64,000 nt of DNA from Amoebophrya sp. A120 (lineage: Eukaryota; Protista; Dinoflagellata). The stretch covers positions 2,395,373 through 2,459,372 of the forward strand of contig CAJINV010000009.1 of the NCBI GenBank assembly GCA_905178155.1, given 5' to 3'. The position numbers and the translations under genes are program-made. Each line of letters opens with the position of its first letter. The stretch's first letter is position 1. The notes beneath the pieces were generated by a model. That model had not been told where the DNA came from. It searched no databases and was given only the letters and a program-made list of their open reading frames with translations. Of this stretch, positions 2-19,900 are shown one piece after another.

Positions 2-130
2 CATGCGGCCGGCACAAGCCTGCGCACGATCATGGCCATGACGGGGCACTGCAGCGTCGATACGCTGCATCGCTATAATGAAGGAGATTTTACATACCAG
101 CGTCTTGCGGCGACAAAGGTGAAATGCTAG
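2..130 (+). CDS. C-terminal end of a tyrosine recombinase (phage integrase/Cre-like); gene starts upstream of the window
   Basis: Frame 2 reads HAAGTSLRTIMAMTGHCSVDTLHRYNEGDFTYQRLAATKVKC*, matching the tyrosine-recombinase box II pattern G.s...I...tGH.s..t..rY with the catalytic His and Tyr; stop TAG at 128-130. Confidence 0.75.
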   Translation, partial: HAAGTSLRTIMAMTGHCSVDTLHRYNEGDFTYQRLAATKVKC

Positions 131-152: not shown

Positions 153-1322
153 TTACTGCGAACCCGCCCTCGACAGCGACGACGACAATGTCGACGGTCG
201 CTGCGGACATGCAAGGCATAACAGATGTGACGCTGCGTGGGCGATCAGTCCACCTTGCTCGTGCGAGGTGGACTAAACGTTCAGTTTCACTTTCACACTC
301 ATGCTGATATATGTGGTAGTATGCAAAACTTTTCAACCGCAAGAACAAGTCCAAGTACAAGCTCGAGCACAACAACAACTACGACTAGATGCACACTTAC
401 AAAGCCAAAATTTAAAAAAATACCTGCTCCATGATTCCTTGCAGTTTTTCACAGAAGGCTGTTTTTAATGTCGTGTTTGCTTCGTTATCTAAACGAATCC
501 ACAACGATAATAACGAAGGAAGTTTCGTCATTAAATCGTTGTGGAAAATGAAGGCCCTGGAGAGATTTTTATTTTTTGTTTTTCATTTGTGAAGAGCTAC
601 ATGCGGATTTGTATGAGAGTAAGTTTGTAAATGTAATTGTATCTCGAGAGAAGGTATTGGTATGATGTCACACGAGACGAATGCAAGCATGAGTGGGTGA
701 AAGTTGAAAATAATAATGGAGAGCATCATGAAGATAAACATAGACATGAGCATGGTTATTGAAGCACAAATTTTAATCACACAATGGCACCTGAATCCGA
801 GTTCCTTCCAGCGATTCTCACCGTGGGACTCGAAGTACATCAATCCGGCTTGCCAACTATGATTGAGGCCGACCACTTCGAAAGCGTCGCCATTGTCCAC
901 GAGGAACATGAATCTCCTCATTACATAATTCCCGCGACACATTTCGCGATATAAAAACTCGCGGTGGCGGGTCGACCTCAGCCGGTTAAACGACGACTCT
1001 TTGATCTTGGGCATCATGCTCTTGCTCACCAGCGCACCGGGCTCGTACTTGTCCGAACGGAAGCGATCGACGAACGTCATCATCTCGTTCTTGGAGACCT
1101 GAAGTTGTAGATTTTTTCTGAAATTACATGAGAAAAATCTGATAAGCATGATGAGTTCTACACTGTTGCATCACGAAAAACACATCCATACAGAAGGGAA
1201 AAAGTACTAATGTATCGCACCTGTCCCTGCTGCCAACGGCCAACGATCATCTTGACTTCCTCCTCAGTCGGCATGTTCAAGGCCTCAGCAAGTTGGCCCT
1301 GAACGGCGGCTCCGAACTGCAT
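153..1322 (-). CDS. Hypothetical 220-aa protein, probably a transposon passenger; exons 1322-1221, 1098-791, 556-424, 272-153
   Basis: Three GT-AG introns join with consistent phases into an open 663-nt frame (MQFGAAVQGQ...SRAGSQ*); it ends 22 nt from the recombinase stop, convergently. Confidence 0.65.
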
Positions 1323-2440: not shown

Positions 2441-5400
2441 TCAGGTCGAAACAGACATCTCGTCGTCCGTGCTGCCCTCCGAAGCCGAAGTATCCTCTGC
2501 CATTGTGTCCACTTTTTTGGTCGCGGAGATGTACGGCTTGATGTGGTCAAACGCGGCGTTCTCCATGGCAGGCGTAATCTGTCCCTCGGGGTAGTCGCAG
2601 CCAACAAATTCGCAGACTTTCTTCAGGCACCGCACACGGGCGTTCATCACGGAGTACTTGTCCATGAAGCGTCCGGTGGTGGTACTTCCGCAGGACTTCG
2701 GCTCGAAGATCTCGTCATCCGCATCCTCGTCGGAAGCGAACACATGCCCGTGCCAACAGGCCTGATCCGGGCGGAAGATGCAGTAGACGCGCTTTCCCGC
2801 CAGAGCTGGGCAAACCTGTTTCTCCGGGATGGCGATCGACGGCGTCACGGTAGCCTTCCAGCGCACGTCGCGTTCGTCACGCCTGTGCCCTCCGGGATTC
2901 ACGCGCTCGTCCTTCGCGGAAGGATCAAACTCCAACATCTTCTTCTCGGGCATAATCGTAGACCGCTGGATCTTGGCCTCCACCCAAAGCTCGGGCTTGG
3001 TGACCAAGTATAACTTCCCCTGGATGAAGTAGGTATCGACAACCGACGCTTTGGAGAAGATCAGGTACGACGCCGGGTTCAGCTTTGCGGTCAAGCCGCC
3101 GAGGCGGTTGCACCAGTGCGAGATGGTCACCGATTTGGTGCGGTCCATCGAAAGCTCAAATATCTCTTTCGTCGCGTCGTTCACGAGGCGCTCCGGAAGA
3201 GCCTTCATGGCGGTGTAGTTTTTTCCTTCGAACGGGTTGACAAACATGTTCTCGCCCATTCCGAAGGGGGACGGCTTCATCAACTCCGAAGGTCCGTTTT
3301 CCAGTGCCATCGGCTGCGCCTTCGCTTTAGCCTTCGGAACAGGCTTTACGCAGGACAGAATCTTGCGGGCCGAGGTCGGAACGAAAGTGCACAGCTGGGC
3401 GTGACCCTTCTCGCCGGAGGTCGAGTAAACAAAGTAGACTCCACCACACGCCTGACCAGCAAGTTTCTTCTGGATCAAAATGCCATTGGCAATCTCGTAG
3501 GTCGGAATCAGCGTCGTCTTCATTCCTCCATACCACTTCGGCACAACCGGCGCGCACGGGAAGTAATGGCGCACGATGTCGGGGACCACAAGCGGCGTTT
3601 TTTGGTGGATAAATCCACCGAAAAGCTGCGCCTCGAGCGTGTGCTTGATACTCTTGTTGTCGCGGTAGGCCTGCATGGCGGTGGTCAAGAACGGGTGGTG
3701 GTCGTCGGAGTAGCAATCGAAGTCCAACATCACGCGGCTATCGTTGAGCTTTTTGCGACGGGAGTCGAAGTATGACCTGTTGTTTTTTTTGCAATTGGAA
3801 ATGAGACGAAGCTGAAGGCGTAGCTGTAGCAGTAGATGATTACTTTGACTGCGAAGTGGAAGTAGAAGAGAAACAGGAAGTGCATTTGGTTCACAAAAAA
3901 GTCTGCAGATCAAAATCAAAAAATCCATGCTCGAGTCAAAATCTAAATACATGTTCTTGGTCGAGTTAGCACCTTAGTTTTTTCTATACCGCCACTGCTC
4001 GATCAAGTCGCAGTATTCCGGCCACTCCAGCTTTTCGGAACGCGAAATCTGCGTGCGCAAACCCGCCCGCTCCTGTTTGATGTTGGGGGCGATCCGCTTC
4101 CACTGCTGCCCGGTGGAGTGCAAAGACTCAGTAAACTGAGTACACGGTGTCGACAACGCGTTAAGCGGAAGCAAGACCTCCTGCAAGGCTTCGGAAACGT
4201 CGACGCCATCAGCTTTCAATTTCACCAGCTCCGTCTTGTAAGCCTCGACGAACCAATGCAGAAACTCGTCCCGACACTCGCCTTCCGTTTCCAAAAACAT
4301 TTCCGCCGCAAGCTTGGCATTCCGCGGATCCAACAACCACGTCAAGACCCAAGGGAAGGTCCATAACTGCAACTCCCTCGATGGCAACCGCATGTACAGC
4401 AAAAACGCGAGCTGGAGGGCAGCCACGTCTTCGGGCGCAATAGCGAGGATTCCTGAGAAGAGACGACGGAAATCGGTTGCCTGCGTACCAGTGATGCGGT
4501 GCTTCGCTTGTTCCGCGACCGTAGCGTTCCCGAGAACAACGGTGGAATCGCCGATGGTGCCCAGGTACCGCTCGTGCACGACGCGGAGAACTTTGGTGTA
4601 CGACCCAAGCACCTGCCAGAACACCGGATCCTTTCCCGCTTTCTTAGCTTTGATGAACGTAGCTCTCGTTTCCTTCTTCCTGTTTTTCTCGGCAAGAGAG
4701 AGCAGCTTGATCATCAGCGCCTTCTGGGTGACGTAACAATTCAGCCGCTCGGCACACGGGTAGATCGATAACCAGCGGTGCTGCTGAAATTGCGGAATCT
4801 TCGAGTACAATACATCCAAGCACCACATGTTCCCCGCTTCCGTAATCTTCTGCATTCCTTCGGTGAAGCCGGGGTACAGCGAATTGACGAGATCCTGTAG
4901 ATCACCGACAAGTCGATGCAGTTGATGGGCTTGGCAAAAGAATTGCACTATGTACGTTTCACACAGCCACTGCGTCGCGCCCCGCGCAATCTGTTTTGCG
5001 CGCTCTGCATTGCAGGCCGCCGAGTACACCCGCAGCTTCTTGTACGCTTTCAAAACGTCTGGACCCGCGTCCGAGAGACAACACCAGATGGTGATTGGGT
5101 CTCCTGGGAAATGCCGGGTGTCGCTCCCCGGCAACGGCAGGTAGTTGCCGAGCATCGCATACACCTCGCTCAGAACAGACTTCCAACCGGCCGAACTCTT
5201 CCGCGACTTTGGGATGAAGGGCCGGATGTGGCACTTCAACTTGCCGCTTGCGTCCATGCGCACGTAGCCGATCAGAACGTCCAGGCTCAGCATCCCGTCC
5301 TTCTTAAAAGTAGTGGAATCGGGGGCCATGCGGACCACAACGATCCTGCGCTTCAGTACCGGGTTTTTCTTCGGTCCGATCTTGCAGATCGGGGCAGGGT

Positions 5401-7944
5401 GGGCCTGGCCGGGCTGGAGCGGGTGTCCGGGCGCGTAATTCACGACGAAGAGTGCTTTTCCCGACGAGTCTTTCTGCACGTGGCGCGTGGTCTCCTTGAT
5501 CCGCTGCTCCTTACTACCTGAAAAAAAGTTGAAGATTCAATTTTAAGTTGCAAATTATCTCGAGCGTCATCTCTTTCAACTTTCATATGTGTAGCGAAGC
5601 ACGCGCAAAAGGACAAGCTTCGCTATCGTTTTGCTACAGCTATAGACGTAGAAGAATCGCTACTGTTTTTGTTATTGTGGTTGTGTGCGCTCGCACCACG
5701 TGCTAAAGCGTTTTGTTTGTTTTGGCTACAGCGTTACATATCGCGATGACCACGAAGGCGGGCAGACTGCAAAGCGGTGGCTTCGCTCTGCGGGCCAGTC
5801 AACACGAACGCTCGCTGAGCTTGATGTACGAAACCGAAGTAGTCGTAGTGCAGAAACGAAGTTAAGACAAAGAGAAAGCTCCGTCAAAATGGATATCAAA
5901 AATTGCAACCACAAGAGTCAGTCGCTGTTTCGCTGTTTCTCTTGGCGCTGGTATTGCAAAGCAAAACCACATCTTTGCCAAAGAGCCGTAGGTGGGACTA
6001 GGAGTGCGTGTCAATCTCAGCGCTTATGCCGAATACACGTACACCTACACTCACACACACACACTACTGATAGCATTGGAAGTTGATCTTGCCGTAGCTG
6101 TAGCCACAACCAAAAGTATAAGTATTACTCAAACTCGCTTTCGTACCAAAAATCTCATCCATGTCATTCCGCACATCCATGTCGAGCGCACGACCGTAGT
6201 ACGTCTCCATGCGCTCGCAAAACTGGCGGAGGGCGTGCTTCTTTTGCGCTAGTGACAGCTTAATTTTCTTTTGGTCGTCGCGGTCTTCACGGAAGGTCTT
6301 GTCGTTGTCGAGCTCGAACGACCGCGTGCGCTTGCGGGACGGAGAGTTGCCCACGTACTGCCCCCGCTGGAGCGTCGACGCCACGTCTTCGGGTGAAAAC
6401 AGCGACATCAGCAGCTCCTGTTTTTTCTCGGAGGTTGCCGACGATTTCCCGATGACGTACCCGATGTACATCACCTTCTCCTCCGTCGAATCCAACTTGT
6501 CGAAGACGGACCACTCAATCGCGGTTCGCCACATCTCTGGAACAGAGTTTTCCTTTTTCCTCTTCTCCTGCATGTGGAAAAACTCGTGGTCATCGAAGAC
6601 TCTCCGCAGCGTGTCCTGGGTCTGTTGTGCGAACGTTGCCACGTGAGTCACCTGAAAACAAAATCGAAAATAAATTAAGTGCGTGCGAGTGTGTGCGTTT
6701 TGAATTTCGTTTTGTATTTGTATTCCTATCTGTATTTGTATTTTCTAAGCAGAATAGGTTTGGTTTCAAGCGTAAGCTATGCTAGTGACTTCGCATTTGT
6801 TTTCGTATTCGAGATCAAGGTCGGAGCCTGGACCTGAAAAAAACAGCTGCATGGTCTTTAGTCACAATCATACCAGAGGAAAAATCGCAAGCAACAGTCT
6901 CAGTAGAGATAGGCTAACACAGTCCGCCTGCGATTTGCGAAAGAGTTTCACACCAAGACAATAAGTCTAGGGCGATTGAAGTTGAACGTCGCATCGCGCG
7001 TCATACTGATATCGTGCTGCCATTATCTCTTACGAATTTTTTGTAGGCGTAGAGGATCACATTCACATTCACACTCACAATCACACGCGCGCTCAAATCT
7101 GTTTCGCACTAACATAGGCGCTCACGCTGGAACGCAAGTTAGGCACTTGTAAGCATTGCGGATCATAATCATAATCATTGATTTAGATTTTCATTATCAT
7201 GCACAACTTTGCTTCACATCTACACACACTTTCGCAGTGACTGCGCAAGATCTTTTTTCCACTTCCTCAATCTTGCATAGTCAATTACTAAAAAAAAAAC
7301 CGTACTTCAATCGCATATATTTTCCGCAACATGTGAAGGGCGAACTCCGGCATGTCATCCTTCTCTGCCGCACCTCTTTTTCCTTTTGCCTCAGCAGACG
7401 GGTCCAGCTCGAGGCGCCACTTGGTGTAGTGCTTCTGCAGCTGCTTGTTGGTGGGGCACTGGGTCGGCACGAAGGACTTTTTCTGAAAGTGCGACTCGTC
7501 CTTCACGTGGTTCGGAAAGTCCTCCGCGGCCTGTTCCAGCAGCACCGACACATCGTTGATCGTCTTAGCTTTCAACACCAACCGCAACGACTCGAACTTG
7601 GAGCTTTCGCTGGCGATGAGACGGGGAAAGTCGGCTTCCGGATCTTTCGGCTCATCAAGCGTCGAGGGATCGCGCTCGAAGTTCATGTCGCTCTCCTGCA
7701 TAGCATGCTCGAGGTAAGCCAGGTGGGCCGAACTCCGCAGCTGATTCGAAGGGTGCGGAGCATGCTTGGAAAGTTCGGAGCGAAATTCGTCCATGAAAAC
7801 TTCGGGGTTTTTTTGGAACCGTTGGTTGATCCACGCTTGCACCGAGGGGAAGTGTGGATCCGCAGAACCACCCAACGGAGGGTCAGGGGCATCAGCCGCA
7901 TCTTCTTTTCCAGCCGGAGGCATGGAGTTGGCGAAGGGCTCCAT
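2441..7944 (-). CDS. Large DDE transposase, hAT-like (CxxH class), ~1335 aa; exons 7944-7306, 6651-6147, 5517-3990, 3776-2441
   Basis: Four ORF-track fragments join through phase-compatible GT-AG introns (YAIE|VTH, EIFG|SKE, QWR|SYF; 4008 nt). Motifs in hAT order: CLSDAG (D), FCQAHQLH (CxxH), HRWLS (RW.S), TQFTESLHS (E). Confidence 0.75.
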
Positions 7945-9011
7945 GTATGCCTTTGGTATGGCCGGAGGGTCGAATAATAAATGACTTTCAAGCGAGTATT
8001 TTTATCCCTGCAATAAAGTTTTAGTTGATGTCGAAAGACAAGTAGAAGCGCGAATCATAGATAGTAAATAGAGTTCATTTCGGAATCATTTTGTTTTTGG
8101 TTTTCAATGTTTGTTTTTGCAGCAAATGGAAAACGAAAACAAAAAGCGCACTTCAATAGAAATTAAAAACCGAAAGCGCCGCGGCCGCCGAGTGCGAGCG
8201 GTTGATCATGTTGCATCGCAAAAACATCTGATCCAGAGAAGATCTTTTTCTCCGCCAATAAGTAGCAAAAAGAACTTTTGCGGTTCAAAAAAAACGCAAC
8301 GACGGATCTATCTTCTAGTTGATCTTCGAGCTAAGACCAAGATCTCTTTTTATCCTAAAGATTCATATTCCGCGCATGACTATGTCCGAGCACAATTTTT
8401 AAAAGAAAAAGAGAAAGTGAAGCCGAAGCACAAGTAGAAGTTGGATGCGAAGTCGAAGTGCAAGACGAACTTCTTGGCTTTTCATGAGCAGCTCCTTTCT
8501 GATCTTGCAGCTCTGATCCTTTCTTCTCTCTCATCATCCTCATTTCCAAAACACTTCTTGTTTCAGACATCATCATTTTCACTGCAGTTCTTCCTTCTCT
8601 TACTCCTTGGCGCCCGTTCCGACGTTGGCGCAGGCACTCCACTTCCGCTTACACGATGTCGACGCAGACAGATGATGGCTGTCGGAATAGCCATCGATGT
8701 CCAGAATCGCGCGGCTATCATTGAGCGGTGTGCGAAGTCGAGCTGTTGTTGTTTTTTATTTGCAGATTAAAAAATAGACACCGCGCCCGTAGATGAAGAT
8801 GAAAGCCCAATGATCTATTCACGAAGATAGAGAAGAACATAATCTATTCTCGTGACCACCACCAATTCCTTCGCGACCTACACCTATGAAAGAGAAAAAC
8901 ACATAACCTGGGCGTCGCATCTCCTGCTGCTATCCGCTTGCTTCATCCTTCGCTTTTCACTTTCAGTCCTTCGAAGCTGAAACGCAATGCCACCAAACCT
9001 CGCCTGGTCCT

Positions 9012-9093
9012 CGAATAGTTGTGGTTCTGTAATAAACCACAACTATTCGCGCAGTTAGCCCGGTGAAGCTGACTGCGCGAATAAGTTGTGGTT
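9012..9093. repeat. Overlapping inverted repeats with 8-bp spacers (lox/FRT-like)
   Basis: cgaatagttgtggtt-ctgtaata-aaccacaactattcg (15-8-15, 9012-9049); second IR 9035-9059 / 9068-9093 around ccggtgaa. Confidence 0.85.
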
Positions 9094-9095
9094 TT

Positions 9096-9312
9096 CTTGA
9101 AGGCGAGACTCGGCTTTCTGGAAGGTAATTCGGTTTTTCTGCAAGGTAAATCGGTTTCTACTTGAAGGCAAATCGGTTTCTACTTGAAGGCAAATCGGTT
9201 GCTACTTGAACTCAAATAGCCTCAAGTGTGGTCAATTGCAAAGCTCGGTGTTGCCATATTGCAAAGCTCGGAACATGCAACTTGCAACCAGAAATTCTAT
9301 TGAAATGCTCGG
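9096..9312. repeat. Subterminal direct repeats
   Basis: About 5 copies of a ~22-bp unit cttgaaggcaaatcggtttcta, followed by ttgcaaagctcgg x2-3. Confidence 0.8.
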
Positions 9313-9883
9313 TGTGTCAAGATCAAATTCAAGGTAAAACGAGATCGAGTAGAAACCGTTTTCTTGAAAATAAAACATGGTTTATGGGGGGGCAAATTAT
9401 ATTTTAAGCATTCATATTATACTCCTTCTCTTTTTATTTTCCCTTTCTTTTCGTTTTAGGCCTCTCCTCCTGCCTCACCTTACTGAATTACCATGAGCCA
9501 TGGGTGCAGAGGGATGTATAGTGCATGTCGCGTTGTAATTGTTCTTTGAGAATGACAGCAAATCGAGCCGGTCTTTGCCTTTGCCGGGGAGGCCGTCTAA
9601 TGATATATCATTCGCAGCCTATGCGCGGGATGTTGCCATGCTTTCTTTGCTTTTGCATTTGCTTTAGAGTCTGAGTCTTGAAAAACCATAACATTTTCAC
9701 AAAAAGATGTACATTAACACATACAGGTCGTGGTCAAGTCAATATGGTATATCAATTCATATGCGGGTCGCGGGTAGTAGCTATGGTGGACGCATGTTTT
9801 TCCTTTCGTATTTCTTTATCGCGAATTCAAAAGGTGCATCAAGAATGACTATCATCTCCTTCATTTGATGCTTGCTGATCGTC

Positions 9884-12800
9884 TCACTGCACCTTCCTGG
9901 CTTGCTTCAATCGTTCCTCGAGCAGCTCGTAGTCTCCTTCCAGGTCGGTAATGGTCTTGATATTAAACTGTTTCTGGATACCCAGCATGAGCTCCTTTTC
10001 TCTCCTGTCGACCATGTTCACGGCGATACCCTTCATGCCGAAGCGTCCCGTACGACCGGTTCGGTGCAGGTAAGTTTCCCCGTTGGCTTCTCTATCGCCA
10101 ATCCTGTTGATGTTCAGTGTTTTTCTGGCTTCTCGATACTTTCTTTCTTGCCTTGGTGGCGTCAGTCTCGTTGTTCTCTTTCCTTTGCTATGAAGTTGTA
10201 CCAACTACATATCAACCACCTTTCAACGAGCCCTTTCTTTTCGTATACTCATGTCATCATCATGCAAACAAAATGCTACACTTCATCCAAAAATTGTAAT
10301 ACCTTGATCCCGCAGTCCATATGGTCGGGATTTCGTAGTTCACCACGAGCGTCACCGCCGGCACGTCGATTCCGCGCGCGAGGACGTCGGTAGCCACTAG
10401 AACTTTGGTGATGCCTATCATTTGTAAAAACGTCCCCACACCAGAGTCAAGATGGGGATTCTGCAACACAAACCTTGAAGTTTTGGGAACCACGCATGAC
10501 AAGTTGCAGGCTGTAGTGTAGTACAGGTTAGCAAGGACAGTCGCATGACAAACCCATCTCCTCATCCTGTTTACAGCATTACAAGTGCCAAAACACGATT
10601 GGAAATGCCTCTCATGTAGGTGCGCATTACAAATTTTCCTGTCATTGCAAATCTGCATGACAACTCTGGGGTGGGGACGTTTTTGCTCAGGATAATGCCC
10701 CGCCGAAACTCGTCCATGACTTTGTCGCGGTGTGCGGGATCGATCTTTTCTGGCCCGGTCTGTATCAAATGTAAAAGTGTCTGGGTCTGGAAGGATACAA
10801 CTTGTGATGCTACTTTTGGAATCTACAGAAAAACTGTATTGCATGAACAGCAAAAGAGGTGTGATTTGTGCTACGCGGACAGGGCATTTCTCATGCTGTA
10901 TGAGCGTCAGAAAGCCCTCGCAAAATCTCTGATGCTATGGCATGCATCACAGACCTCATGGATCATGCAAAATCTGCATGACAAACTCCTGCATTCTTCC
11001 AGACCCAGACATTTTTGCAATCCATAGTCTGCTGCGTTCCGCAAATCAGCGACACGGCATACCCGTCCTTTCGCAATCGAACGGAAACTTCGAACCTGTT
11101 AGTAGGGACAATTGTGGGTAGTTTTGGTGCTTTATTATCCTCCCCCGATTTATTTGATCCCTGGTCTATCTTGGCATGTAGAAATTCTCTTCTGTGCGTG
11201 TGTACCTAGCAAGACCAGCACAAAGGAACAAATGGAAATCGAAATAGATGAATAATAATAAACAAAAGCATAAATCAAATATAAATAGATCGTTCTCAGT
11301 ACGCAGTTTTCCTGCTGTTCATGAAGATGATGGACTGCCCAACATTCAAGTGTGCGTATATTTCCTTCAGGGCCTGGTATTTCTCGTCGTTATTTGCACA
11401 CTGCTGGTAAAAGGAGAGAATGGTGTCAATCGCCAAGTCCTTGTTTTGCACCGTGATTTTTGCTGCGTTCGGGACGATGGCCTTCGCGAACTCTCGCACG
11501 TGATCCGGGTATCTGGTGGAGTTGTTTTCTTTTCCCATTGGAGAAGGCCGGCTTCAAAAACGCATTTTCGTGATCTACTTCGGCACGCTAGTAGATCTAG
11601 ACAATGAAACCAACACAAACAAAAATCTCAGGAGAAAACAAATTGAGTAAATACGTGGCGGAGAAGAATAAAACTTGGCAATCTGGTGAGAGCCACTTTC
11701 GGACGGACGCGACGTCGCGGCCCATTTGATTCTCTTGGTCCAACATGACGTCAGCTTCGTCAAGGATGAAAACCTTCACCCGGTCCACGTTCAATATGCG
11801 CTTCTTTGTCACGTCGTAGATCTGTAGTGAATTTTGTGTTTTCGCGAAGTAGCGACTTCTTGCTGACAAACTTGTTCATGCTCACGGGTTTGCCGGAGAA
11901 AAAATAAAAAATCACGTGGTACGACAGCTTTGCTCGGTGACATGTTTTCAACAAAAAATGCGCAACAACGCAAAAATGCGATCTGTACCCGTCCTGGTGT
12001 TCCGACTAGAATGTGTGCTTCGCATTTTCCCTTTTCGATTCTGTCTCCCTGAGGCAGCACCTTGAGGACCTTAATGCCCATGAATTTCCCGAGCTTCATG
12101 ACGACCTCCTCTGTCTGGTTCGCGAGTTCTCGTGTTGGTGCCATCACCATGGCCTGCGGATAGGTGAGCTTGGGATCTATGTTCGCAAGCATTCCCAGTG
12201 AGAAGGTTGCCGTCTTACCGCTTCCATTTGCAGCCTGCCCGATCATGTTCTTCGATTTTGGCGGGCAGATGAGTGGCAGTGCGGCGGCTTGGATCCGTGA
12301 AGGTCGAACGTAGTTCATGCCGTGGATGCCCTCCATTAATTCCCTAGAGTAGTAGAGTTGTCCAGAGTTGTTGAATTCTTTTCCTTTTTTTTCGGTAGCT
12401 TGCTGCGTAGCAGCACGGCGTGAGAGGTTGCACTACGAGGCCATGACGCTCGATCTGCGCAGTTTTCACGTAAGGAGAACCGCCAAAATATTTCATCTAA
12501 TGGAAAAAATGACAATAAGTGTGTCTTTTTACGATGAAGTAAGAAAGTACTTTGTGAGGTTTAGCGAGTCCCAGGATTCCGCAGCGAGCAAGGCCTCGCG
12601 ATAATCAGCGTCAGCCCATTCTACTTGCACTTCGGCAGCCTTTTCGGAGATCAGCCCGCCACGGATGATAGGCGGTCGACCGTCCTCGTCCAGTTGGACT
12701 GGCGGCGCTGGTGCTGGTACTCCGTTCCCGTTGGCTGCAGACGAGGAGGCGCCTTTCTGGCCCACCGGTATTACCTGCACCGGAGGTGCTGCAGCGGGTG

Positions 12801-16980: not shown

Positions 16981-19900
16981 GCCCCGACCACGGCCGACGC
17001 CACTGCGTTCTGCTTCTGCCCGCCTTCCGGCCGCTTGAAATATAAAAGCTGCAACGCTTATGAATTGCAAAAGTATCGCACTCGTAAAAAAGCATGACAA
17101 ATTATTCCCTCAGCATGAGAAGTAAAGTTTGTAATGCGGATTTACCTTGAGAAAAATGCATGATTGCAATTACTACGACTACGATACTTTTGCACAGGAT
17201 AACGCTAGCTGGTGCACCAAAAGCCGGACGATGAACTCGACGGGGCCCAAAATCGGACTATGGGTTGCAGAAGTGTCTGGGTCTGCAAGATTGCGGCCAG
17301 GCTACTTGTCAAGAATATTTTGAATGACCCATGATCTCTGTGATGCATGCCCTAGCATCACAGATTTTTAGAGGCCATTGCGATGCCTCTACAGCCTGAG
17401 AAATGCCCTCTCCGCGTAGCACGAACTGGGGTCCTCTTGCTGCTGGTCATGCATTGCAAATTTTTTTAGCATCCAGAGGCAGCATCACAAGTTTAGAATC
17501 TTCCAGACCCAGACTTTTTTGCATTTGATACGGACAGATCTTCGTCAACACAAAGAAAACGTAAGGAAACACATAATCCACCACGGTGCCATATGGCGCT
17601 CTCAAGCGTCACATTCGCAACTGTTACATGGATTTGTAATGCAAGAACAACAACAGTGAGAGTGGCAACAGTGATTGCAGCTTTCGCATCACAGCTTTTC
17701 CACAGATCATCATGCTGTTTTGCCATGCTAAGCACCTTGATCAAGTGGAGGCTAATGGCAATTTTGCATCACGAATTCATGTAACGTTTGAGAATGTAAC
17801 ATCAGTTGAGAACGCCATATGCCAAGCACCACCTCCGCGACTGTACGAACGGAGGCGAACAGGCTCCGGGCCCCGACGGTTTTCACGTAGTCCATGAAGC
17901 CCTTTGTCTTTCGGGAGATAAAGTCGGTGACGCGGCTTATGCTGTGCAAAAGCATCGTACTAGTACTAGACCATTACGCCGGCGTCCAGGACGCCGGCGA
18001 TAGGTGGCCTAGTAAATCTAAACGCAACTACCAAGCAAACTAACAACAAAGAGGAAAAAACTTGGAGAGCGTTGGGCTGAAGACTCGTCGAAAGAGTCCC
18101 GCTCTTGGGAATCTGCTAGCGGAAACGCGGCCACTATTCGAAGCCCTTCGGGCCGCGGTCTTAGCATGACAAAACGGGCTCCGCTTGCTACTGAAGCCCT
18201 TCACTAGTAGCGGCCCACATTAGTGGGCGCGCGCGCCTTCGCTTCCGGGGCTTCTTCCTAACTAGCTCGCCCCCGCCCGGCCCGGCCGTCGGCCCTGGCC
18301 CGATCCCCCGCTTTTGGGCTTCCTACCCTGATGTCTAGAGAAGGCCTCTCCCCCAGATAAGTAGGTCCCCGGACCCAGATGTCTCCCCGGATATCTCCCC
18401 AGATATTTCCCGCATCCCCAGATATCTCCCCAGATATGTCCCCAGATACCTCCCCAGATATCTCCCCAGATAGATCCCCAGATAGATCCCCAGATATATC
18501 CCCAGATATATCCCCAGATATATCCCCAGATATATCCCCAGATATATCCCCAGATATGCCCCCAGATATATCCCCAGATATCTCCCCAGATATATCCCCA
18601 GATACGGGAAGGGCCGCCCTCTTCATTTTGCATGCCGAGCTTCATCGCCCCCCCTACCCCCCCAAACGGGGCCGGTCTTTGGGGGTAGCCAGAATAGACC
18701 TGCTAAAAACCGGCCGGACCGCCCGCGGGCGTGGAGGACACACCGGCAGGATGTTTGTTCCCCGCGATGCCTTTTTTTTTCTTACGCGCGCTCCCTTAGA
18801 AGCTTCCTTTAAGGGCTCCCTTAAGGGAAGTTTCTAAATTCCCTTTTTTCTAGAATTCATTTTCTAAGGGCGCCCCTATAATCTATAAGGGCGAAAAATC
18901 CGAGTAAAAATTCTATAGTGTTATTTTATAAATCGCATGACAAATTGCCTCAGCATGAGAACCAAAATTTGTATATGCAGATTTAACTTCAGAAAGAAAT
19001 TTGTAACGCATGAATGCGATTAGTACAACGAGTACGATATTACTTTTGCACAGGATACGGCTTGTGGCGACACGAAACTTTTCGAGCGCGTCGTTGAAGT
19101 TTCGCTGCATGTGGCCAATGGGATTGCGAAACCATGAGAATGGGCCGCGGCTCTTGACGACAATTTCTCCACTTCCAGTAGTCCGCGATATCCTGTGTAA
19201 AAACGTCCCCACACCAGAGTCAAGATGGGGAATCTGCTAGACAAATCAGCCAGCTTTGCCTTTGCTTGTTTGGCATGACAAGTTTGTCCGCGTAGTGTGA
19301 TCCTGTTTAGCTAGTTAAGAAGCATCACAGATCTAGCATAGAATGCTGATTCTAGCATCACAAGTTCCAAAACACGAACAGAAAACGCTCTGCATAGGGC
19401 TCCGCATGAGAAACTTTTTTGGCATGCGGAATTGCATGACAACTATGGCGTGGGGACGTTTTTACTCAGAATACACGACGACCCATCTTCATCGTCTCCG
19501 GCCCGGTGCTTCAACAGTATGGAAGCGCCAGGTTATTTGAAATCGACAGAGTTGAAATAAGTAATTTGTCATGCATAAAATGGATACCAGTTGGAAGACC
19601 AAGCTCCAAGCGGAGCATGACAAATTTTCGGAGCACCGAAATCCAATTTGTCATGCTGTTTGGGCACAGATGAAGAGTGCTTTTGTCATGCTCCTTTAGC
19701 AGCTCGATCCCAAAGCCTAAATAGGCTCACAATCTGCCTCACTTGCCATCCCGGCAAGACAGGCACTTCATGCCTTGCATTTTATGCATGACAAACCATT
19801 TCAACTTTGACGATTTCAATCCTGTTCCTGACACTTCCATAAACAGTTCGGCCTCCGTACTCGCGATGACGCCGTGTTCGGTCCCGTGCCCCTCTTCCCG

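Follow-up and report, generated by a model that had tools for sequence, protein, structure and literature searches.

A lox-like inverted repeat on the inner border of a hAT-like transposon's terminal repeat in Amoebophrya sp. A120, a probable crossover site of the element's own putative recombinase

Our analysis points to a 38-bp inverted repeat (dyad) in the dinoflagellate Amoebophrya sp. A120 as the probable crossover site of a transposon's own putative tyrosine recombinase, apparently present at both ends of the element and predicted to yield as its direct product an inversion of the interior, not an excision. The dyad is likened to a tyrosine-recombinase core because of its shape, its pattern of conservation and its linkage to a recombinase-like frame; because the two sites are inverted, inversion of the interior is expected and neither excision nor circles. 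The element's ends were made by its transposase, which also moves it, and not by the recombinase; they are ascribed to a hAT-like transposase because of the fold of this protein and an 8-bp target duplication. All coordinates refer to the window, i.e. the whole stretch of 64,000 nucleotides of contig CAJINV010000009.1 that was analysed.

Results

The dyad and its third arm comprise the following features:

9012..9026, plus strand: arm 1 of the dyad, with the first base marking where the terminal repeat begins on its inner side; a contig starts at 9012
9027..9034: asymmetric 8-bp spacer, the predicted strand-exchange region (from the sequence; another contig has another spacer between the same arms)
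9035..9049, minus strand: arm 2, the perfect inverse of arm 1 (inverted-repeat scan)
9050..9077: 10-8-10 hairpin with 9 of 10 positions paired, separating arms 2 and 3 (folding)
9078..9093, plus strand: third arm of 16 nt, direct to arm 1, a candidate accessory site (sequence comparison)

The perfect 15-8-15 inverted repeat with an asymmetric spacer, which an earlier note on this DNA had described, is confirmed by direct reading of 9012-9049. The whole window has 11 perfect inverted repeats whose arms measure at least 9 and whose spacers measure 3-14; this one is the longest, the runner-up having arms of 11. No arm above 12 occurred in 20 block shuffles, about 7e-4 perfect inverted repeats with arms of at least 15 are expected by chance per window, and the folding z-score of the dyad is -10.8. 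Core sites of tyrosine recombinases consist of an asymmetric spacer of 6-8 bp with an arm of about 11-17 bp on either side, the two arms being inverted, and this core geometry is found in the dyad. Between partner sites of such enzymes the arms are conserved and the spacer is free to vary, provided that it is equal in both partners.

The same note had also reported a third arm, a second inverted repeat about an 8-nt loop and a likeness to FRT. The third arm is present, but it is 16 nt long, with one extra base relative to arm 1, and starts 66 bases after the start of arm 1 and 28 bases after arm 2. A contig aligns there without a gap, which shows the additional base to be genuine. The second inverted repeat likewise exists but is larger, 9035-9059 pairing with 9068-9093 (25 vs 26 nt, one mismatch, one extra base) around the 8 nt at 9060-9067. 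Because this loop is bordered by 10 bp of non-arm sequence, the repeat of arms 2 and 3 does not form a second arm-8-arm core. The folds of arm 1 with arm 2 and of arm 2 with arm 3 are both very stable (z -10.8 and -11.1). In the full 48-bp FRT the third arm abuts the core as a direct repeat; with arm 3 lying off the core and carrying an extra base, identity with a full FRT was rejected, and the FRT-like interpretation of the third arm has to be dropped.

An Rfam search returned only two miRNA hairpin matches, both below threshold. The arm pattern had 0 matches in metagenomes and 0 in prokaryotic genomes; in viral contigs five matches to a 9+9 pattern were obtained, about the number estimated for chance, none of them with the outer arm bases. 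Inside the window two inverted 8-base matches to the arm core, near chance level, lie 232 bases apart in an intron (5675 and 5907).

The terminal repeat was reconstructed from contigs of two public runs (X1 and X2) of one sample, which is possibly the source of the assembly and does not provide independent evidence; 14 contigs per run were aligned to 8900-9700, and the reconstruction is based on 8 of the 14 for each. Its parts are:

9012..9197: inner block, common to both ends, with at most one difference (9108)
9198..9374: middle of the terminal repeat, in two versions about 20% apart (35-36 differences) at equal depth
9375..9416: terminal 42 bp, the same at both ends (a 42-bp contig); the element stops at 9416
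9417..9424, plus strand: 8-bp target-site duplication, TTATACTC, with a central TA (reverse-complement match of the second flank)
9127..9214, plus strand: 22-bp tandem repeats, likely subterminal repeats of the transposase, with three good copies (9148, 9170, 9192) and weaker ones from about 9088

In the contig graph the interior contig stops at 9041 and a 166-bp contig begins at 9012 with about twice the interior depth (68 vs 36 in X1, 153.5 vs 72 in X2). This contig is also entered by a second, unlike sequence, the two unlike interiors joining exactly at 9012. Further out, 9168-9404 is present as two versions of similar depth (48/45 in X1, 101/86 in X2), one identical to the window and the other with 35-36 differences. 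Flank contigs begin at 9387, and the path leaves at 9416 either into the flank of the window or into a second flank, which opens with 8 loose letters that match 9417-9424 in reverse complement (a coincidence with a probability of about 2e-5). The duplication measures 8 bp and not 9, all 8 letters agreeing, in a single flank pair whose pairing is itself taken from this match.

In our reading 9012-9416 forms a terminal inverted repeat of 405 bp bordered by an 8-bp target duplication, its left-end counterpart being deduced from the contig graph. The dyad makes up the innermost 38 bases of this repeat, and it is precisely with the first base of arm 1 that homology between the ends breaks off. Since two unlike interiors lead into the repeat at 9012 and the 8-bp duplication closes it, the dyad would be present at both ends in inverted orientation; the duplication suggests that both ends are those of one insertion, the second being inverted. 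The earlier claim of a site near the end of a recombinase-bearing element is thereby sharpened as to position, the dyad lying at the inner edge of the terminal repeat; the ends are the work of the hAT-like transposase. The element is at least 13 kb long, because one contig extends 3539 letters to the left of the window. If a single rate is assumed, the contrast in divergence between 9012-9197 and 9198-9374 has a probability of 2e-17.

Two other readings of the graph were rejected. A direct-repeat (LTR-like) arrangement leaves the 8-bp reverse-complement match unexplained and is also contradicted by the second inner contig, which in the solved depth bins has an interior-like depth (32/69) and not that of a flank (32/47). 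A 5-bp duplication would require three extra bases and another coincidence.

Flanks other than that of the window sum to a depth of 90/148, about three times the window flank, and the contigs show 0 differences from the window in 1,371-1,556 flank bases and scattered differences in the interior. These flank depths and the scattered interior differences beside a clean flank suggest two slightly diverged copies of the element, depth being a weak measure that leaves one contig per run over. At all 16 places where the X1 contig departs from the window (within 3849-9041 and at 9108) the window has an A (P about 2e-10). Ambiguities between the copies may have been entered as A, in which case the window could be a mixture of two copies.

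An inverted copy of the 22-bp repeat is found at 9345-9362, near the tip of the element, where transposase sites are expected. The rival that the earlier note had named, an ordinary subterminal repeat, finds no match in the arms: their best agreement with the 22-bp repeats is 7/15, which is equalled by 96% of 5000 shuffles and means no similarity. At its tail, arm 3 passes into a weak 22-bp unit.

The arms recur in two further contexts with unlike neighbours, known from 23-30 flanking letters, and there retain 14-15 of 15 arm bases and the 8-letter spacing. One is a 62-bp contig of about five times the flank depth, which matches 9011-9049 with one difference (at some base within 9019-9041) and is unlike thereafter. 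In the other a contig covers 9013-9050, is unlike past 9013 and has a 9-bp hairpin of its own there; its 8-letter spacer is different, the letters being deduced from two runs that place gaps differently and are compatible with four changes. Contig ends lie at most one base from the outer edge of an arm in all three contexts, and both ends of the element carry the same spacer. The result that the earlier note had named as a refutation, an inverted repeat that is not conserved among copies, was not obtained, the arms being kept in two other contexts while the neighbours and one spacer change. Its crossover-site reading is supported, indirectly, by the inner-edge position of the dyad, the arms kept in two contexts, their lack of relation to the 22-bp repeats and the recombinase-like frame 2-127; it does not hold for an FRT-like third arm, and the sites are apparently inverted.

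Coding features of the element are:

3974..5536, minus strand: catalytic exon of a hAT-like DDE transposase (homologues, alignment, fold)
6064..6651, minus strand: probable upstream exon of the transposase gene (tblastn of a homologue, E 4e-7)
2441..3775, minus strand: probable downstream exon of the transposase gene (tblastn of at least six homologues, best E 5e-12)
790..1298, minus strand: probable last exons of the transposase gene, convergent with the recombinase (homologue P0019 matches 1149-1298 and 790-1098)
7288..8001, minus strand: open reading frame within the element, perhaps a first exon
2..130, plus strand: probable tyrosine recombinase, C-terminal 42 residues and stop (frame 2-127), the rest lying left of the window

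Pfam, PHROG and NCBIfam contain no meaningful match to the frame 3974-5479. HMMER found 17 matches among 1.84 billion proteins; all 10 clusters that were looked up contain a protein of Amoebophrya sp. AT5.2 of 1270-2240 residues, and one of the seven matches left outside this look-up is an adhesin repeat artefact. A search with P0019 gave only two relatives, both already known, a word-based homologue search with the transposase exon gave no match, and no related loci were found in viral and metagenome contigs. The catalytic residues are D54, D137, C182xxH185, R235W236 and E451. In an alignment with 13 segments D137, CxxH, RW and E451 are kept in at least three quarters of the rows; D54 stays below this line because several rows are partial there. 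A model built from 11 sequences (pLDDT 73.6) had Hermes as all of its top 10 PDB matches, with E-values of 4e-4 to 6e-3 and modest TM-scores of 0.26-0.39; the single-sequence model (pLDDT 40) was uninformative, and an Atlas search points to hAT/ZBED1/DUF659 with scores at the level of a lead. Judged by model and alignment, the transposase is hAT-like, with a predicted Hermes fold and the signature D-D-CxxH-RW-E. A BED zinc finger gave no Pfam hit and no CxxC..H..H pattern in any of the five window frames, where small unrecognised exons are possible; 12 of 13 homologues have no match to a BED-like pattern, and one has a match in mid-protein.

Most of the minus-strand frames are probably exons of one gene, because homologues also match 6064-6651, 2441-3775 and 790-1298; the frame 7288-8001 has no Pfam, PHROG, NCBIfam or homologue match. 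The homologues P0002-P0012 and P0019 form a family of Amoebophrya proteins of 1270-2240 residues with no Pfam match, which are hAT-like transposases; some of their alignment rows lack parts of the catalytic core. Further observations within the element are a palindromic insert at 1377-1654 (92-nt arms, 74% complementary), within a probable intron of the transposase gene; a copy, 78% identical, of the transposase-gene piece 3691-3758 at 8668-8735, upstream of the gene; and the 10-mer GCTACAGCTA at 2360, 3821, 5633 and 6095, in introns or at exon edges of the element and nowhere else in the window.

The recombinase fragment has His16 and Tyr25 near its end, a spacing that we take to be that of tyrosine recombinases; since only the end of the protein lies in the window, the catalytic set is seen only as His and Tyr. 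Its matches to positions 143-168 of 172 of Pfam Phage_integrase (E 0.14) and to two PHROG integrases (E 0.09 and 0.24) are above threshold, and its best Pfam match is an 11-residue zinc-finger match. Annotated integrases account for 18 of the 20 plasmid matches listed (of 180 records; best E 0.02) and for 4 of 5 phage matches, and the sole Pfam family among 30 Atlas matches is Phage_integrase, on 11% of one cluster. NCBIfam, PDB and a word-based homologue search gave no match to the 42-residue fragment. Each match is weak, and the frame 2-127 is the probable C-terminus of a tyrosine recombinase.

Outside the element lies a host gene:

9881..10853, minus strand: last exons of a host DEAD-box helicase gene (Helicase_C, E 5e-8)

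The contig of the helicase gene has a lower depth than the element. From 10416 to 59744 there are at least 37 MITE- or introner-like inserts, 140-325 bp long and bounded by TAT...ATA; the repeats that flank them measure exactly 5 bp, as is the case for 37 of the 40 insert candidates that have a repeat of at least 3. Their tips resemble that of the big element (TATGAATGC), which has an 8-bp duplication. Tandem units of 12 bp, about 15 or more in number, occupy 18378-18640.

Discussion

In the mechanism that we propose, one recombinase monomer would bind each 15-bp arm and strand exchange would take place across the 8-bp spacer, with arm 3 and the hairpin as accessories to the core. For a pair of inverted copies that share one spacer, established chemistry predicts that the interior is inverted while the outer ends stay put. 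Junctions started at the dyad could convert the adjacent 150 bp and leave the ends identical there; selection or a recent template switch would be alternative explanations of the identical inner block. Excision of the element by the recombinase was rejected, as the sites are inverted and the ends bear a transposase-type duplication. The 31-letter contigs, which do not phase across the shared block of 186 bp, show neither crossover joints nor an end-to-end circle junction, a result that says nothing against circles. hAT elements cut and paste and need no resolvase, which counts against a crossover site. The payoff would most likely lie in amplifying excised circles or joined copies, or in reducing them to monomers, on the pattern of the 2-micron plasmid and Tn4430: an excised circle would carry two sites within inverted repeats, like the 2-micron plasmid, or alternatively the sites would resolve joined copies, as TnpI does in Tn4430. 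According to the part of the literature at hand, hAT elements form circles (PMC2803484). Different spacers would stop sister families from recombining with each other. It is conceivable, if rather doubtful, that a whole group of giant hAT-like transposons in parasitic dinoflagellates has a Cre/Flp-type system of its own, in which inverted lox-like sites flip the core, amplify circles or swap cores between shells and the spacers of sister families are orthogonal.

That the dyad is a binding site without strand exchange, either an operator bound by the recombinase or by some other protein of the element, or else the transposase's innermost site, helping the ends to pair, is unlikely. Conserved arms around a variable spacer of fixed length would also suit a dimeric repressor, and the right copy of the dyad lies about 1 kb upstream of the probable start of the transposase gene. 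hAT ends require at least 100-200 bp of subterminal DNA, and Hermes, in the part of the report available, uses two BED domains to bind a quasi-palindrome in its end (bioRxiv 10.1101/2022.09.16.508221), so a dyad within a transposon end can be a transposase site. Hermes sites, however, are 4-bp motifs near the tip, whereas the arms are 15 bp long, lie 370 bp inside and do not resemble the 22-bp repeats; a BED-like pattern is missing from all five window frames and from 12 of 13 homologues; and a plain binding site has to account for a dyad that apparently stands at both ends and sets the homology boundary to the base.

Even less probable is a single-strand structure, in which the three arms would form alternative hairpins as a priming, nicking or hairpin-resolution signal of an extrachromosomal form. 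Both folds are indeed very stable, the one mismatch in the 25-bp stem is a G-T pair on the plus strand, and the variant context also has its 9-bp hairpin beside the arm. Against this, the arm sequence and not just its pairing is kept across contexts, compensatory change was not seen there, and the visible part of the element has no gene for a replication initiator or polymerase; the asymmetric spacer is also ill-suited to a telomere resolvase. We consider it very improbable that template switching or hairpin repair left the dyad as a scar without function, spread to both ends by gene conversion. Template switching does produce nested patterns of A, inverse A and A, and recent conversion could account for the identical inner block, but the arms survive in two contexts despite diverged neighbours and, in one, a diverged spacer, and arms 1 and 2 remain perfectly complementary. 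A crossover site is the reading that we prefer; it would give a testable target for the kind of recombinase that such eukaryotic transposons carry.

The 38-bp candidate site is sharply bounded, has natural spacer variants and sits in an element whose left and right outer ends can be distinguished. Should the group-wide Cre/Flp-type system considered above exist, a recombinase borne by a eukaryotic transposon of the DDE type would for the first time have a defined target site, and new recombinase/site pairs of eukaryotes could be drawn from it. A further outcome is a transposase family without annotation, which has 10 clusters containing Amoebophrya proteins and no match in Pfam. The many introners of this lineage lack a known mobiliser, and a paralogue of the transposase family may be the missing one.

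Comparison with known systems

Cores of inverted arms around an asymmetric spacer are common to tyrosine recombinases. As in Flp/FRT of the 2-micron plasmid and Cre/loxP of phage P1, the spacer here is asymmetric and 8 bp long between inverted arms; unlike in these systems the arms are 15 bp, the third arm lies off the core, the site resides in a chromosomal transposon and crossover is predicted. The 2-micron plasmid has two sites inside long inverted repeats, and recombination inverts one part of it.

Closest in composition are Tec1/Tec2 of Euplotes and Sardine/Thon of Paramecium, which as far as the parts of the papers considered go likewise combine a DDE transposase, a tyrosine recombinase (here probable and partial) and long terminal inverted repeats (PMC3464196, PMC5405496, PMC3212892). 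According to the same parts, these repeats are long (425-700 bp) and complex, and the role of the recombinase, to resolve intermediates, is merely proposed. In the portion of the Sardine consensus available (supplement 13), each terminal repeat, read by eye, has two dyads with arms of about 21-23 bp and an asymmetric 4-bp centre, which the portions of the Tec/Sardine/Thon literature examined do not call recombination sites. Those elements have an IS630/Tc1 transposase and a TA target, again as far as these sources were seen, unlike the Hermes fold and 8-bp duplication found here; the distance from D137 to E451 is 314 residues, vs the DD(32-35)E of IS630/Tc1. Here, moreover, the host is a dinoflagellate, the terminal repeat is not palindromic overall and the one dyad stands exactly at its inner edge.

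In Tn4430, as described in the part of PMC2847244 consulted, TnpI, a tyrosine recombinase, works on a core of inverted 14-bp motifs with accessory direct motifs on one side. The combination of a DDE transposon with a tyrosine recombinase and of an inverted core with accessory motifs is shared with this TnpI/IRS system (PMC2847244), which in the same part has one internal site, serves cointegrate resolution and is replicative, in contrast to the two inverted end sites and the cut-and-paste type found here. MarCry-1_FO of Fusarium oxysporum, to judge from a partial view of PMC3212892, joins mariner to Crypton and differs in its 16-bp terminal repeats and TA target; that part describes no lox-like terminal site. 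Assignment to Crypton, DIRS or Starship elements, with recombinase-made ends and short direct repeats, was rejected in view of the terminal inverted repeat, the 8-bp duplication and the DDE transposase. The searched literature, seen in part, yielded no hAT element with a tyrosine recombinase, and such sites may have been described before in Tec terminal repeats. In the main text of one Amoebophrya genome paper (PMC7789003) the words 'recombinase' and 'integrase' are absent, and the part of PMC12130899 consulted does not describe this element.

With hAT elements and Hermes, as presented in parts of two sources (bioRxiv 10.1101/2022.09.16.508221, PMC2803484), the element shares the fold, D-D-CxxH-RW-E, an 8-bp duplication with a central TA, and dissimilar subterminal regions of about 400 bp with short repeats. 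Buster-type hAT elements are described, in what was seen of the literature, as preferring nnnTAnnn, which TTATACTC fits. Of the features that define hAT elements, those found here are a DDE transposase whose inserted helical domain has CxxH and RW, the Hermes fold and the 8-bp duplication. Unlike known hAT elements, this one has no BED finger that was found, relatives of 1270-2240 residues, a length of at least 13 kb and a recombinase aboard; and where short terminal repeats cap dissimilar ends in hAT elements, here 42 bp are the same at the tip, the ends align over 405 bp and the inner 186 bp are identical. The arrangement works like that of Tec/Sardine or the 2-micron plasmid without belonging to either, agrees with part of the hAT definition, and appears to be an independent pairing of a recombinase with a hAT-like transposase.
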